From an uncultured delta proteobacterium (GTDB lineage: Bacteria > Desulfobacterota > Binatia > UBA9968): DNA of 64,000 nt. Positions 1-20,385 of this stretch are shown here, piece after piece. Position 1 is the first letter of the stretch, and each line of letters starts with the position of its first letter. Both the position numbers and the translations under genes were made by a program. Under the pieces are notes generated by a model. That model saw nothing but the letters and a program-made list of their open reading frames with translations, had not been told where the DNA came from and did not search any database. The stretch lies in NCBI GenBank assembly GCA_963804165.1, contig CAWDPO010000043.1, forward strand, positions 352,001 through 416,000, read 5' to 3'.

Positions 1-150
1 GATAACGTCGTCATCGGCACCGACTATGGCCATACCGACGCGTCGAGCGAAATCGACGCCATCGACATCTTCCGCGCCAACAAGGAAGTCACCGATCCGA
101 TCAAGAAAAAAATCCTGGACGACAACCCGCGGCGGCTGTACGCGTTATGA
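1..150 (+). CDS. Amidohydrolase family protein, C-terminal end (partial)
   Basis: Frame 1 reads DNVVIGTDYGHTD...KKILDDNPRRLYAL*, the typical Amidohydro_2 C-terminus (G[TS]DYxH...IL.DN..RLY). Confidence 0.8.
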   Translation, partial: DNVVIGTDYGHTDASSEIDAIDIFRANKEVTDPIKKKILDDNPRRLYAL

Positions 151-235
151 ATTTAGTCGTCCTGGGGCAATTCTCCTGACTCCGAGGTTCCTTCTGGTTG
201 TGCGAGGATCAAGCTTTGGAGCGGTAGCTGCTGCT

Positions 236-2182
236 TTAAACTTTGGAATTTTTCTGCTGTTCCTCCAGAAGCCGCTGCGCCTCTTCCTCGGACAGTGATT
301 CCAATTCCTTCAATAGTGTCGTCAAGTCTTGGGCGTCCAAAGTCTTTCCCTGATGTGCCGTGATCATTGATGCCATTTCCGCAACGGTCGGAGATTCAAA
401 TAGTGATCGCAGTGGTATCTCTAACTGAAACTGATTGACGACTCGCGACACAACCCGGGTCGCTGTCAGAGAGTGACCTCCAAGGTCCAAGAAATCGTCG
501 TAGATACCAATGGGACGAACATCAAGCAGATCCTCCCAGATCTGGACCAAACTCTTTTCTATCTCATTTCGCGGCGCAGTATATAACGCGTCAAGTTTCG
601 GTCGCGCACGATCCGGTTTTGGTAAGGCGCGACGATCCAACTTTCCGTTCGTTAGCGGCAGCGATTCCAAAAACACAAAAGTCGACGGGACCATGTAATC
701 TGGCAGTTTATTCCTGATAAATTTTTTGAGATCGCTCACATTGAGAACGGAGTTTTGACGCGGGATGACATAACCGACCAGATACTCTTCTCCGAGCTCA
801 CGGTCCCATGCAGCGACTCCGGCGTCTTTGACCTGAGGATGCGCCAACAATGCTCTCTCAATCTCGCCCAGCTCCACACGGTAGCCACGAATCTTCACCA
901 TGAGATCTTTTCGTCCCAGGTGGATCACAAATCCGTTGGGCAACATCCGGCCGAGATCGCCGGTCGGATAAATTGAATCGGCTGCGCCCTGTGAGTTCCA
1001 GGTTGTCGAGGATGGACGGTGGAACGGCAGATTAAGGTATCGACTGCGGACGGTGATTTCTCCCGTTTGCCCGGGTTGCGCTATATTTCCATCCTCGTCA
1101 ACTATAAGGACTTCTCTTCCAGGCCGGGGATATCCGACGGGAACGCCCTGTTCCGGGAGCTTGAAGTCTTGATCGATCAGAAACGAAGCGAATGTATGGG
1201 TTTCCGTCGCGCCAATAGAAATTTCGAAGGTCGTCGTGGCTGGGAAATGCATCCTATAGAGTGCGATTTCCACTTTGGATACTGGCGCTCCCGACAAATT
1301 AATCAAACGTAATGCGGGAAATTCTATCCTATGCGAGAGCGATTCCACGAACTGGCGAAAGACTACCGGAGTTGAATGAAAGCAAGTGATTTGCTCGTCA
1401 CGCAACCATGACGGGATCCGATTGATTCCTTCCAAGCTAATGTCGAACGGATGAATCGATGCTCCGTTCAGCAAGGACTGATAAAGGTTTATGTGAGACG
1501 AACCAAAAGCAATAGAATGAAATAGGGTGAGCTTGTCGTCTACGCCAATATTATTTATCTGGCCGTGAACAACGCCGTTAAACACGATATTCTTATGAGG
1601 ACAAACGATACCCTTGGGTTTTCCTGTCGATCCCGAAGTGTATAAAAGGCATGCGGGCTCCTCCGCTCCGACCGAAAGTTCGGGGTTCTCAGAGGCGGTT
1701 GAGTGATCGAGTTGGTCGACATTCAGCAATAGCTTCGAATTTCGAATGTGCGGATTGATAAGCCCCTCACCGCGACTATTCGACAGAAGTAAGCTAGCGC
1801 CAGAGTCCTCCAACATTCGAACTTGTCTTTCCTCGGGAAACGATGGGTCTAAACCCAGGTAGAATTTACCTGCCTTCAATACTCCCAAAATTGCTGGAAG
1901 CATGTCGATTCCATGCTCGAATAACAGGGGTATGGGCTCGCTTGAGGCCCCTCGCTTCGCCAAAACGGCGTGAGCGATCCGATTAGCCGCGCGGTTGAGT
2001 TGATCGTAGGTCAGCGCTCGGTCCCTGTCCTTGACTGCCAATCGCTCCGGATACATGTGCACGATCTTCTCAAACCGCGCCGGGATCGATGTCTCAACGT
2101 CCTCCATGGGTCACTCAACGAACATTCCCCATGGAAGAAAGCACTTGGCCCGTATTGATTGTTGGTCATGCGGCAACTTCAT
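236..2182 (-). CDS. Stand-alone NRPS-like adenylation + carrier (A-PCP) protein; in-frame TGA at 2111-2113 near the N-terminus
   Basis: ORF 236..2107 has YTSGSTGKPKG, TGDLG, KIRGYRVELGEIE, NGKLDR and PCP motif LGGHSL. An in-frame ATG at 2182 with GGGGAG RBS encodes MKLPHDQQSIRAKCF... before the TGA. Confidence 0.85.
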
Positions 2183-15520: not shown

Positions 15521-16496
15521 TTATTCCAACGAAAAGTTTGTGCCGACTTTTCGCTCCAACGCCCAGCGATAAGCCCAAGCGGTTGCTGTCGTGTCCCAGA
15601 TCGACATACCGACGGACTCGAAGACGATCGTCTGGTCAGCTTCGTTCGCGCGGGAATTTTCCCCAGACATCACGTCGCCCAGTTCGCCCGCGATTTGCGC
15701 GGCCGACCAAGTGCCATCAGCGATCATCGCCACGTAGGGCTGGCGCGGCGCTTCGCCGCCGAGCACTTCTTCTTTCCAAGACACAATCACGCGCGAGTTC
15801 GCGACCGTCTCGCGCGGCAGCTGCCCACTGGTGATCGAAACGACCAGCGCGCCCGGCGCGATCCATGCCGGCTCGATCACTGTCGAACGCGAACTGGTCG
15901 CCAGGCTGACGATCGGAGCGTTTTCCACGGCCGCCGTGGATCCGTCGACGGCTTCGACATCGATGCTCGAGCCAATCGCTCATCTCCTTGGCGAAACACT
16001 CGCGATGTTCTTCCGTCGGGCTGAAAACTTTTACCTTCTTCAACGAACTGGCAGCGCCCGGCGGATGGCGAGAATCTGGCCGCGCGCTTGGCGGCCGCTG
16101 CCGATCAGTCCGAGCGTATCCGCTCCTTTAGGCGCGAGGTATTTGCTCGCCACGCCGGCCGGCGCGCCGGTGCGCCAGACATTCAGCGCAGCGCCGGCGA
16201 CCAGCGCCAGCAAATCGCCGCGCTCGCCGTCGAAAGAGAAGATAAAATAGGCGTCCTTGGCGCCGCGAAACAGCGCGCTGATGCGCATGCCCTGCCCTGC
16301 CCGCGGCACGGCGGAAGTCGTGATGCGATATTTTTTCTGACGATCGATCAGACTGGTTTCCAGGCGCACCTGGCCGGCGACCGCGTCGCTGTTAAACGCG
16401 CGCATCGAGTCTTCGATGCGGTCGAGTAGACCGTCCATTGCCACCGGGTCGCTGTACAGCGGCGCTAGGTCTTTTTCGCTGAGCAATGAGCGGCAT
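15521..16496 (-). CDS. Ornithine cyclodeaminase/mu-crystallin family protein (frameshifted)
   Basis: RTGAPAGVA, LGLIGSGRQA, IVSLATSS, GELGDV, FESVGMSIWD. Confidence 0.85.
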
Positions 16497-16814
16497 AGAT
16501 TCTCTTGCGCTTAGTAGTCGATTTCATAGACCGCATGAATTTTACCGATTCGTCCATATTTGAGCAACGTGCGCCTTAATACGATTTACCGGAGTCTACT
16601 TCACTGTTGACACTCGTCTGGCTTACTGACGCAACCCGTCCGACGCCGCACGACAGGGCAAATCGCTATGCTTGACTTCCGTTGTGTGAGCTTGTCGAAG
16701 CATATGCATCGAAGCAGTTATCGCCCTTTTTCATTTCGGATTGCGCATGGGGGTCGACATAATGTAACATCATTGAATCTTTTTCTAGATTATTATTTTA
16801 TTTAGAAGTTCCAG

Positions 16815-17832
16815 ATGGGCATCCAGTCTAGTAGAGAAACCAAGGCCCAGCTGCTGCGCGGCGTCGGTCCAGGACAATATCGACGTCGTCCAGAGGCGTG
16901 CAGCGTCAAACGGGCCAACGTGCAGGCACGCCGGTTACAGCTTCTGGCTATCCGGCGGCGCTGGTCGCCGCGGCGATCGCGTTTATCTGACGGTCCCGTC
17001 GAATCTCGTTACAGAGGCACGCGCCACTTCAGAGCGCAGCGCCGATCAGCCGGCACGCCGGCGATGAATATCGACGCAGACTCCGGAATCGGCCGCGCCC
17101 CTGTCCCATCCCCGTCCGATCGACCGCGGAGCCATGCCGCTGTCGATCAAGAGAATCGTCATCGACCCGGGCCATGGCGGCGAGCCCGGCGCGACTTCGC
17201 GAATCCGGGTCACGGAAAAAGAGATCACCTTGGATGTGGCGCTGCGCCTGCGCCGGCTCTTGGAGAATGAGCCCTTGATGTCCTGCTGACGCGCGAAACC
17301 GACCAGCGCGTCTCCCTCGACAAACGAGTGGCTTTCGCCAACGAAAACAAAGCCGATCTGTTCCTTTCGATCCACGTAAACTGGATGGAGCCGCACACTA
17401 TCCGCGCCTTGGAAACCTATTACGTCGGCCCCACCGACGACCCGGCCACGCTCAAGCTGGCCAGCAGGGAAAACAAGGACTCGGGCTATTCGCTGTCGGA
17501 CTACAAAAAAATCCTCGAAAAAATTTACGTCGACGCCCGGCACGACGAATCGCGCGCCTTCGCCAAACCATCCAAACCCAACTCTTTCATTCACTGAAAC
17601 CGAGCCAATCCCTGAACTGGAGAATCGCGGCGTCAAGACCGCGCCTTTCGTCGTGCTGATCGGCACGCAGATGCCGGCCATCTTGGTTGAGATCGCCAGC
17701 TCTGTCCAACGACGAAGAGGTCAAGTTGTTGACAAAAGAGGATTATCGCGAAAATATCGCCCTTGGCGCTGGCGCAAGGGATTCGACAGCTACGCCACGA
17801 GTTCAACATCACCCGACAGGAAAGGCAGTTAA
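16815..17832 (+). CDS. N-acetylmuramoyl-L-alanine amidase (Amidase_3), frameshifted
   Basis: Across frames: IVIDPGHGG, EKEITLDVA, LTR, FANENKADLFLSIHVN, RGVKTAPFVVL, MPAILVE. Confidence 0.85.
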
Positions 17833-17835
17833 TTC

Positions 17836-18870
17836 ATGGAAGAAAGCAATGAAGCACTCTGCGTGGGAATCGATCTTGGCACTTCGCGCAGCTCGATTTC
17901 GGCGTCCAACGGCGAGCGCCATGTGATCGACAGCTACGTCGGCTGGCCGCTCGATATGGTCGCGCGCAAACTGGTGAAAAAAGCCGATCTTGTCGGCCGG
18001 GAGGCCCTCGATAACCGCCCGATGCTCGACCTGCGCCGGCCGCTCGAACGAGGGCATCATGAAGGAAGGCTCGGAGAAAGATCAAGAGGCGGTGCAAGAA
18101 ATCCTCCGACATCTAATTTCCCTCGCCGGAATCAAGCAAAAAGGTAAAAACAAATCGAAAGTGCGCGCCGTGGTCGGCGTCCCCGCCGAGGCGTTCCGCG
18201 TGAGCCGGCAAAACTTGCGCAACACCATGGAAGGAATCGCCGACAGCGTCATGCTGGTCTCTGAGCCGTTCGCCGTGGCCTATGGCTTGGAGGCGTTGTT
18301 GCACGCCTTGGTCATCGACATCGGCGCCGGCACGGCCGATTTTTGCGTCATGCAAGGGCGTTATCCCACCGAAGACGATCAAAGAACTCTGCCCAACGCC
18401 GGCGATTCCATCGACGAGCAGTTGAACAAACTGGTCCGCGAACGCCACCCCGACGCGCAGTTTTCCATCCATATGATCCGCGAATGGAAGGAGAAATGGA
18501 GTTTTGTCGGTGAACCAAAAGATCGCGTCGTGGTCACCGTACCGATCAAAGGCAAGGCCAGTGAACTCGATATCACCCAGGAAATGCGCACGCGCCTGCG
18601 AAAGCATTCTGCCGCCCATCTGCGAGACCATGACGACTTGCTGACGAAAGTGGAGCCGGAATTTCAGGACAAAGTCCGCAATAACGTCGATCCTTGCCGG
18701 GCGGGACATCGCTGATCGTCGGGCTTACCGACGCGATCAACAAGGCTTTGAACGAGTTCGGCGGGGGGCGCGCCACGGTAGTCACAGATCCGGTTTTTGC
18801 CGGGTCCGACGGCAGCCTGGCCATCGCACGCGATGCCTCGAGCGCCGACTGGGAGAGGCTTTCGCTTTAG
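17836..18870 (+). CDS. mamK: MamK-like actin family ATPase (frameshifted)
   Basis: GIDLGTS, SYVGWPLD, RAVVGVPA, VSEPFAVAYGL, DIGAGTADFC, AGDSIDEQL, KEKWSFVG, PEFQDKVRNNV, DPVFAGSDG: MamK-type rather than MreB-type motifs. The symbol denotes family only. Confidence 0.82.
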
Positions 18871-19286
18871 ATGGAGCGACCGGCGGCGACGTTCCTAGCG
18901 CCGCCGCGATCAGCAATCGCCAATCGAACGGAGACGCAGATGGCGACTGGATTTCCGAGCTGCTGCTCTTTTCCGCCGGCATTACCGGCGGCATTTTATC
19001 GCATGCATCAAGCCCTATCTCCATGCCGCCAAAAAAACGCCGTACCGAGCTGGTAAGGGCGCGGGCGCGCATCTTCGCCGGTATGAAAGAGAAGCACGAC
19101 GAAGAAATTCTCGACGAAGCATTCCAAGCCACCGAAGCGATACGCGGCGAGCTCAACAAATCGCTGCAAACTTTACGAAAAACGTTAACCCCGTTCTGGT
19201 TCCCGCCGGCCGCTCAACGCCCCACCGAACAGACGCCGACTACCCCGCACGCCGACACGATCGATCGAAATCGCTACACATCGTAG
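18871..19286 (+). CDS. Hypothetical protein with N-terminal hydrophobic segment and helical C-terminus (frameshifted)
   Basis: Begins right after the actin stop; ELLLFSAGITGGIL segment followed by charged helical ORF 19023..19286. Confidence 0.5.
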
Positions 19287-19401
19287 CCGCATCTAGCTTT
19301 TTTCCGGGTCGCTTAAAAATTTCTACCTTCGTCTTGCGCTTCGGGATTAATTTGACAAGTAACACTCTCAAGTGACAAATAGTCGTGCGGAGGTATCCGG
19401 G

Positions 19402-20385
19402 ATGAAACTAATAAAGGGGGTATTGGCAGTTGCGTTGGCGCTGCTGCCGATCAAAGCTATGGCTGAAGACACCATCAATATCGGTCTGTTCAATCGCGAC
19501 GCGGCGATCATGCCGCCGAACGCAAAAACTTTCTCAAGCAGGAAAATATTCGCGTCGAGATCAACACGGTCACCGACTCGCCGACGCTGCTGCGCAATCT
19601 GATCAGCGGCAAGTACGGTCTCATCCTCAATAATGCGGACAACGTCATCGCTTGGGCCGAGGGCCAAGGCGAAGACCCGCAGAAAAACGACTTCGTGATT
19701 TTTCTCGGCGGCAGCCAGGGCGTCGATCAGAAACTCGTTGTCGCCCCCGGGATCAATGACTTTCGCGACCTCAAAGGAAAGCTTTTGGCCGCCGACGCGG
19801 TCACCACGGGCTATGCGGTTGTCGCCATGGCCATCTTGAAAAAGCATGGCCTCGAGTGGAAGCGAGACTATGAGGTGAAGTCTTTCGGCAACACCGCCGC
19901 GCGCGCCGATGCCATGAGCCGAGGCGACGCCTCCGGCGCGATGATGAGCATGCCGGACGAAGAGATCCAAAAACGCGGATTCAAAGTGCTCGCCCAAGCG
20001 GAAGATTACGTCAAACACTACGCCCGCGGGCTCGGCGCCACGCGCAGGGTGTGGGCCAATGCTAACGAAGATCTGGTCGTGCGCTTTACTCGCGCGATGA
20101 TCCGCGCCACGGATTGGCTGCAGGATGCCAAAAACAAGGATGAAGTCGATCCAGCTGTTGCTCGGCGAAACCAAGAACAATAAGGCCCGCGCCGAAGCTA
20201 TGTACGCGGCGACGCTAAGTCCGGCCATGGGCCTGACACCGCGCAGCCGCATCGATATGGAAGGCATCCGCACGGTGCTCGAATTGCGCGAAGTCGCCGG
20301 GCTGATGAAGCCACCCGTGCCAAAGCCGGAAAAATACGTCGACGACAGATTCTACAAAAAGGCGTTGGCGACTTTGGACAAGTAA
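19402..20385 (+). CDS. NitT/TauT-type ABC substrate-binding protein (frameshifted)
   Basis: Signal peptide, DLKGKLLAAD, RFTRAMIRATDW, KYVDDRFY. Confidence 0.8.

Follow-up and report, generated by a model that had tools for sequence, protein, structure and literature searches.

What does an actin-like ATPase of the MamK type do in a bacterium that has no evident magnetosome genes, and why does its gene directly follow that of a peptidoglycan amidase? The question is raised by a stretch of 64,000 nucleotides (G000:C43:352001-416000, hereafter the window; G numbers denote genomes, C contigs, and L numbers the homologous loci compared) from a soil bacterium, whose genome, G000, is assembled into 46 contigs of 7.5 Mb and is 80.9% complete. 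An initial annotation, made from the letters of the window, described an operon of an amidase, a MamK-like actin and a small membrane protein, and suggested that a filament of this actin may position the wall hydrolase through a membrane tether. Judged by gene order and homology, the amidase and the actin are a widespread two-gene module of many non-magnetic bacteria, belonging by title to several phyla. As a whole explanation we favor, with somewhat better than even confidence, an actin-amidase module in which the N-terminal tail of the enzyme docks on the actin, and of which the copy in the window was damaged by assembly. The actin would polymerise beneath the inner membrane, as expected from its family; the N-terminal helix of the amidase is predicted to dock on actin residues 121-128, 138-155 and 174-176 and on the C-terminal helix; and the filament would set where, and perhaps when, the amidase meets the wall. 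A small protein with transmembrane and coiled-coil parts would be an added accessory in the genus of the window.

The linkage was traced in two sets of loci. The first, limited to one genome per species, contained 174 relatives, of which the best 80 loci were analysed. Their titles are 'delta proteobacterium', Syntrophobacter sp. SbD2 and Binatia (78-100% identity) and, at 62-69% identity, many Thermoanaerobaculia, Holophagales and other Acidobacteriota. An amidase homolog is found directly upstream of the actin and on the same strand in 79 of these 80 loci, and the lone miss has only 85 bp of upstream sequence; under a stricter rule of profile and position the count is 77 of 80, the added misses being a locus with a 268-bp flank and one with a run-on open reading frame (ORF). 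The second set, seeded with a diverse alignment, comprised 80 loci, including magnetotactic metagenome-assembled genomes (MAGs) and many Planctomycetota, together with 8 loci from a search of the phylum, in total 88 loci with 92 actin genes. Here an amidase stands beside 31 of the 92 genes, all 31 scoring at least 430 bits on a profile of the amidase-linked actins of the first set, and beside none of the 59 lower-scoring genes; two other high-scoring actins have less than 300 bp upstream, too little for linkage to be judged.

A tree computed with IQ-TREE in quick mode has 87 rows, left after thinning at 80% identity had removed 87 near-duplicates from a set of 174 (172 actins, the window fragment and MreB). 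On it the amidase-linked actins group in a single clade, with support of 98 in the Shimodaira-Hasegawa-like approximate likelihood ratio test (SH-aLRT). The clade has 32 rows: 29 linked actins, two that are untestable, and the fragment from the window. Its sister group is a 27-row clade, rich in Planctomycetota and without the amidase, and the actins of magnetotactic MAGs take basal, unresolved positions. The linkage, first noticed at a single locus, is strongly conserved. The initial annotation had proposed a tree with MamK, MreB, ParM and FtsA; ours sets the linked actins apart from the magnetotactic actins (the MreB of G000 alone, on a very long branch, serves as the outgroup, and there are no BeeR, ParM or FtsA rows).

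Titles within the linked clade are Acidobacteriota, Desulfobulbaceae, Nitrospiraceae, Gammaproteobacteria, Rhodothermales and Aminicenantes. The genus of the window nests within the acidobacterial branch (95-99 at the starred branches), which suggests that the amidase-actin pair was transferred as a unit; some of the titles may reflect binning errors. Near-identical pairs are also seen under titles of different phyla (Chloroflexota, Acidobacteria and Binatia; L037, L043, L044 and L045), and these represent either lateral transfer of the pair or, again, binning errors.

Closer to the source organism, the genus offers 24 further genomes, and 20 of them, the unpublished G005 included, gave an actin match. 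Of these matches 19 are full-length; the match in G007 spans query residues 20-74 only. The actin frame is open over 343-344 amino acids in most of the genus rows listed. Intact relatives have an amidase of 331 amino acids and an actin of 343, with a 3-bp junction identical to that of the window, and in six long contigs this pair lies in the same neighborhood as in the window, in the order UbiD-like gene, divergent cyclodeaminase-like gene, amidase, actin, binding-protein gene. In the window itself the ORF map bears out the initial observation that the amidase stop at 17832 precedes the actin ATG by three bp, and both genes are split over several frames in the assembly. A promoter and terminator scan gave no sigma-70-like site in 16300-19500, and the terminator-like sites did not exceed those of shuffled sequences.

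Family-model scores, matches to solved structures and placement in the tree agree with the initial assignment of the actin to the MamK type and not to MreB. Pfam recognises MreB_Mbl/Actin in the central piece of the gene (17990-18715), and an intact same-genus relative passes the broad Pfam MreB model PF06723 (83.7 bits vs 27). On the NCBIfam MamK model NF040964 this relative scores 381.0 bits, below the cut-off of 400; the central fragment from the window scores 208 bits, and the MamK of a magnetosome cluster in G358 (see below) 406 bits. MreB scores are far under the curated cut-offs (71.8 bits vs 293 on NF010539, 57.8 vs 365.75 on TIGR00904), and G000 has its own canonical MreB elsewhere (contig 37, 500 bits), so that an MreB identity is rejected; the possibility raised at the outset, that the protein falls within MreB, does not apply. 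BeeR identity is rejected as well (217.1 bits on NF053558 vs a cut-off of 530). The best solved structures are those of MamK (5ljw, 5jyg and 5ljv; for 5ljw, E is 8.5e-77 over residues 6-341), and MreB matches at 7e-15. In an alignment of 37 actin sequences (A3), D13, G15, T16, E143, D161, G163, G165, T166 and G288 are invariant, which covers the phosphate 1, phosphate 2 and adenosine motifs and the catalytic Glu of SEP. These motifs are present in the window, and all five actin motifs listed in the initial annotation are found in its translation (VSEPFAVAYGL, DIGAGTADFC, KEKWSFVG, PEFQDKVRNN and DPVFAGSDG). More than 6373 database proteins match at an E-value of 1e-10 or better, of which the close ones carry generic MreB names, with no named MamK; true MamK sequences were taken from a family search of the phylum, in which 17 of 401 genomes had a MamK-type match. 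On this sequence evidence the actin is a near-MamK that lacks three features of MamK membership, the cut-off score, the gene context and the clade.

The partner enzyme is recognised by the Pfam model PF01520 (Amidase_3) in two pieces of the window, 17134-17289 and 17328-17597 (39 and 27.5 bits); intact relatives score 158-163 bits (gathering score 27). Its anatomy (Table 1) was derived from an alignment of 37 sequences (A2) and an AlphaFold model with a mean predicted local distance difference test (pLDDT) value of 79. H114, E128, H181 and E286, which we take to be the zinc ligands (His, Glu, His) and the catalytic Glu, are invariant in A2. In sequence and fold the enzyme comes closest to AmiA of E. 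coli (8c2o, TM-score 0.86 on the target), AmiB of Bartonella (3ne8) and AmiC of E. coli (4bin). The alignment with AmiA and AmiB runs without a break through an insert that CwlV and CwlD-type enzymes lack; the insert agrees with that of AmiA and AmiB in place and size, and is helical at 204-231 in the model. In AmiA/B/C the insert carries an autoinhibitory helix. Equivalog models give scores far from their cut-offs (AmiA, 108 vs 400 bits; AmiC, 93 vs 700; AmiB, 69 vs 532), and a separate, unbroken AmiC-like gene is found on contig 15 of G000. In E. coli, AmiA, AmiB and AmiC serve cell separation and are soluble periplasmic proteins, exported by signal peptides and targeted by AMIN domains or by activators (EnvC and NlpD; 8c0j). 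The amidase of the module matches them best in its catalytic domain, insert included, but is anchored by an N-terminal transmembrane helix preceded by a conserved cytoplasmic helix. In the predicted structure, an amphipathic helix in the cytoplasm, a single transmembrane helix and a long disordered periplasmic linker replace the cleaved signal peptide; alignment and model together suggest that a cell-wall amidase, probably of the regulated type, has here become a type II membrane protein whose cytoplasmic end is conserved.

The tail motif of this cytoplasmic end is conserved across lineages, N19 being invariant and L12 nearly so in A2. Over all loci, 82 of 109 amidase ORFs carry a strict form of the motif, against three of 7601 other ORFs. 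Of these three, one is the N-terminal part of an amidase whose ORF is split; two have the motif at the C-terminus and immediately precede MamK-like genes that have no amidase. By eye, the upstream partner of such an actin ends in a peptide of the same type (for example, ...KKKELMAEIFKANLKLQKK) in about 27 loci, which make up the Planctomycetota-rich sister clade and its relatives; in L205:1245-2486, L189:1298-2344, L192:1956-2489 and L150:2146-2484 (from the range L134-L213) the motif lies within the last 20 or so residues. Seven sister-clade partners that were inspected are mostly coiled-coil-looking, and by hydropathy six have no transmembrane helix and the one from L150 has one. No motif peptide was found in the same neighbor listing beside the actins of magnetotactic MAGs. 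Since this short motif persists beside related actins in partners that otherwise differ, it is best read as an actin-docking element.

Co-folding, which the initial annotation had suggested as a check, was run on the actin (A3) and residues 1-40 of the amidase (A2). The pair passes with a score of 0.83, vs 0.56 for the best control; the mark is reached by 58 of 80 solved complexes and by 2 of 110 mismatched pairs, counts that hold only roughly for a run with its own alignments. Contact agreement between runs is at least 64%, and the pLDDT of the partner at least 64. On the side of the tail the predicted interface takes in residues 4-25, including L12 and N19, and on the side of the actin residues 121-128, 138-141, 149-155, 174-176 and 329-341, the last being the C-terminal helix. 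This prediction supports, and does not show, binding of the tail to the actin. Together with the recurrence of the motif it backs the proposed link between filament and hydrolase; the part of the proposal that made the small membrane protein the tether has not stood. With a membrane-spanning helix of its own and a conserved helix on the cytoplasmic side, the amidase is probably its own tether, and its tail is the likely element of contact. A broader reading, to which we give slightly less than even credence, is that a whole branch of non-magnetosome MamK-like actins relies on a single short docking peptide (hydrophobic-hydrophobic-x-x-hydrophobic-hydrophobic-x-x-Asn-hydrophobic), which in the linked clade is carried by the cytoplasmic tail of the amidase, with an ATP-driven filament directly holding, moving or switching the enzyme across the membrane.

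The rival account that survives best is that the two proteins are co-expressed and not tethered: the actin would have another cargo or role, in the membrane or in cell shape, the amidase would simply be co-regulated, and its helix would serve membrane insertion or self-association. Adjacency alone is indeed no proof of binding, one co-fold control reached 0.56, and MamK-family actins occur in many other gene contexts; yet the same motif at the free cytoplasmic end of unrelated partners beside sister actins is hard to explain in this way, the conserved L12 and N19 fall inside the predicted interface, and the linkage extends to 79 of the best 80 loci (of 174 relatives) under titles of several phyla. 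We consider this account unlikely.

Control could also run in the reverse direction: the tail would nucleate or cap the actin or anchor it to the membrane, like ParR on ParM, with filament behavior as the output. The predicted site (138-155, 174-176 and the C-terminal helix) resembles the cleft between subdomains IA and IIA, which is used for subunit contacts and by ParR on ParM, and a tail bound in that cleft may bind only monomers or filament ends. Conservation of the catalytic residues and of the regulated-type insert argues that the activity of the enzyme is under selection, and the reverse reading, which we hold to be quite unlikely as the whole answer, and the positioning of the hydrolase do not exclude each other.

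The broken frames of the operon bear on the other half of the favored explanation, damage by assembly. A five-way alignment of the window with four same-genus relatives over 14.0-21.2 kb gives 32 window-specific indels of 1-2 bp, spread over six to eight adjoining genes (distributed as in Table 1), and the same count gives 3-12 per relative. Of the 32, 22 are insertions and 10 deletions, mostly outside base runs. Read in the frame of the relatives, the actin has a ratio of nonsynonymous to synonymous substitution rates (dN/dS) of 0.05-0.10 (intact pairs, 0.04-0.09), the amidase one of 0.18-0.29 (intact pairs, 0.11-0.22), and neither has a premature stop. Comparison by blastn with 84 kb of G014 (67-83% identity) was too divergent for a clean regional indel rate, and long-ORF coverage was uninformative as a measure of frameshifts, being confounded by antisense ORFs in GC-rich DNA. 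The pattern of these changes makes local (long-read) assembly error very probably the source of the indels, and the operon is therefore probably alive in the organism; as an example of an interesting and apparently undescribed system, the copy in the window is poor and probably mis-assembled.

Several points weigh against this explanation and its docking component. Indel density is uneven, with about 11 per kb in the amidase, about 5 per kb in the actin and 0-4 per kb in the neighbors. The rpoB and rpoC genes (contig 23), MreB and the AmiC-like gene of G000 are unbroken, as, to all appearances, are many genes in other parts of the window; with long genes elsewhere in G000 intact, the errors must be patchy. 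Low dN/dS would be compatible with very recent inactivation. Neither G008 (99% complete) nor G024 (92%) gave an actin match, so that the module is dispensable in some members of the genus, and no second copy of it was found in G000. Dynamic filament formation is argued from the family to which the actin is related. Finally, the co-fold is a single model, and a best control of 0.56 means that the actin surface attracts helices in it.

It is on the genomic points among these that the view of a dead operon draws, in which the amidase, the actin and the third gene are true pseudogenes decayed by small indels, 19 of them in 2.4 kb and denser than in the flanking genes. Real decay of the operon nevertheless appears quite improbable: the UbiD-like, cyclodeaminase-like and binding-protein neighbors also carry indels, insertions outnumber deletions 22 to 10, mostly outside base runs, whereas loss of DNA is the usual course in bacterial pseudogenes, and dN/dS resembles the values of the intact relatives. 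So many natural indels, moreover, should have been accompanied by many neutral substitutions and some stops, and there is no nonsense substitution.

A genuine magnetosome cluster of the same phylum (G358:C23:17000-43000, L129 and L133, in a 3.3-Mb genome), with two actins, MamA, MamQ, MamB and MamP/E-like genes, served as a positive control for the magnetosome question. A tblastn search of G000, 80.9% complete, with the 35 ORFs of that cluster found no magnetosome cluster; the sole match at the locus is the actin, and the other matches are generic HtrA, CDF, LemA and TPR proteins, which lie on different contigs or, within C43, at a distance of 270 kb. The lack of mam genes, reported initially for the window, was thereby tested on the whole assembly, as had been proposed, and no cluster was found. 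A cryptic or remnant magnetosome function, suggested by MamK being the closest named family, is vanishingly improbable with no cluster found in an 81% complete genome, the linked actins in a clade apart from those of magnetotactic MAGs, and a score under the MamK cut-off.

Among known systems, MamK (PDB 5LJW, 5LJV and 5JYG; NF040964) is the closest to the actin by sequence and has the same nucleotide-binding motifs and SEP glutamate; the actin of the module differs in its score (381, under the cut-off of 400), in its separate clade, in that no magnetosome genes were found with it, and in being partnered by a peptidoglycan amidase. Partners of MamK are MamJ, MamY and McaA/B-type proteins. In ParM, the partner ParR contacts the actin-like filament through a short helical peptide, which is a lead for the binding of the tail; ParM serves plasmid segregation, however, and its model is not among the significant matches of the intact relative. 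By mechanism, the closest described system is the bactofilin BacA, which, in the accessible part of PMC10945521, recruits the M23 endopeptidase LmdC through a conserved cytoplasmic motif in Hyphomonas neptunium and Rhodospirillum rubrum, and whose gene is likewise clustered with that of a membrane-anchored wall hydrolase. By analogy, the module probably works in a similar way. Unlike BacA and LmdC as described in the accessible text, it has an ATP-binding actin homolog, an Amidase_3 enzyme and a docking helix instead of a β-hairpin, and it is known here from sequence and prediction.

MamK relatives in non-magnetotactic hosts have been reported: BeeR of Verrucomicrobiota forms filaments in vitro (PMC11929497, accessible part), and a MamK-like protein of Saltatorellota forms them when expressed (bioRxiv 10.1101/817700, accessible part), the function of both being given as unknown. 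The actin of the module is unlike BeeR in score (217 bits vs a cut-off of 530), and the accessible parts of the BeeR and Saltatorellota texts mention no amidase partner. The word 'amidase' is absent from the accessible main texts, supplements excluded, of the BeeR preprint, the mBio MamK paper, the Saltatorellota preprint and the Thiomargarita preprint. A full-text search, whose coverage leaves out supplements and subscription journals, found no literature linking a MamK-type actin to an amidase, and the module is apparently undescribed in the literature searched.

To our knowledge, spatial confinement of wall hydrolases is known for few systems (FtsEX-EnvC-amidase, MreB-linked synthesis and bactofilin-LmdC). 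If the proposed docking is true, an actin filament hard-wired to an amidase would be a new, nucleotide-driven route of control, and peptidoglycan cleavage would be under spatial control independent of FtsZ, FtsEX and EnvC. It would also provide a function for a very large group of proteins that now carry the label 'rod shape-determining protein MreB', and the shared docking motif may explain how non-magnetosome MamK relatives, such as those of planctomycetes, find their cargo.

Table 1. Features of the operon and its neighbors in the window, with the window-specific indels of each, and segments of the amidase protein
Feature	Position	Strand	Indels	Remarks
UbiD-like gene			3	
Cyclodeaminase-like gene			4	
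Spacer			2	
Intergenic region upstream of operon	16487-16814	+		ORF map; adjoining ornithine-cyclodeaminase-like gene is divergent
Amidase, Amidase_3, AmiA/B/C type, bitopic	16815-17832	+	11 (approximately)	ATG 16815, TAA 17830-17832
Amidase N-terminal cytoplasmic helix motif, proposed actin-docking peptide	16842-16890	+		KAQLLRGV / VQDNIDVV; one inserted base at 16865-16866 splits the motif
Amidase periplasmic catalytic domain with AmiA/B/C-type insert	17134-17829	+		Pfam
MamK-family actin-like ATPase	17836-18870	+	5	ATG 17836, TAG 18868-18870
Third gene, small bitopic protein of about 115 amino acids	18940-19286	+	3	Homology to relatives
First binding-protein gene			2	
Second binding-protein gene			2	
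Amidase protein, helix with tail motif	residues 2-23			basic-x-x-L-L-R-x-x-V-x-x-N-(V/L)
Amidase protein, basic stretch	after the helix			
Amidase protein, transmembrane helix	residues 38-54			
Amidase protein, variable linker	residues 58-96			Low confidence
Amidase protein, catalytic domain	residues ~100-325			

The third gene of the operon is recognised by tblastn with the proteins of relatives, which match the window at 18945-19205 with 65% identity. Its ATG is out of frame with the remainder of the gene. An ATG-initiated ORF does begin at 18871, right after the actin stop, as noted initially; the conserved third gene, however, starts near 18940. In the relatives, the protein begins with a transmembrane helix (by hydropathy) and continues through a basic stretch into a cytoplasmic part that is helical or coiled-coil, with the helical consensus ...RRTELV.AR.RILA..KEKH.EEILDEAF..TEAI.GELDK..., and no Pfam or NCBIfam family was matched. 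Besides the window, 15 distinct loci have the gene, all of them within the same-genus clade (21 loci, L023-L043) and three with weak or partial matches; it was found in none of the other lineages examined. Of the three-gene neighborhood expected from the window, the amidase-actin pair is therefore widely conserved, and the third gene is confined to a genus-level clade; a role as general tether is rejected for it, and by its distribution it is a lineage-specific accessory.

A different companion is seen in 28 acidobacterial loci, where a protein of 410-550 amino acids with a PilZ domain is encoded directly upstream of the amidase (for example, L049:3472-4881, L058:3629-4870 and L072:3314-4843). 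The N-terminal PilZ domain was confirmed in all three proteins tested, and the conserved C-terminal end weakly resembles AMIN in one of the three (E 0.007). The PilZ-domain protein is absent from the genus of the window; where present, it hints at an input from cyclic di-GMP in acidobacterial lineages.

A UvrA-like region elsewhere in the source genome (G000:C37:39994-45549) matches in several pieces, with internal TGA, TAA and TAG stops, and probably represents either a duplicated paralog of uvrA or one more stretch with frameshifts. Two partners in the sister clade (L155:1316-2371 and L189:1298-2344) have an N-terminal part that by eye resembles a degenerate GGDEF domain. In Desulfobacterota, two tandem MamK-family genes of a non-magnetosome kind, with a protein of 160-190 amino acids encoded between them, are found in L125 (G260:C12), L126 (G318:C1), L134 and L141. 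The spacer proteins of these tandem arrangements end in a different conserved C-terminal peptide, ...GSHYLPG.VVRNL..., and the one from G260 has a hydrophobic N-terminus.

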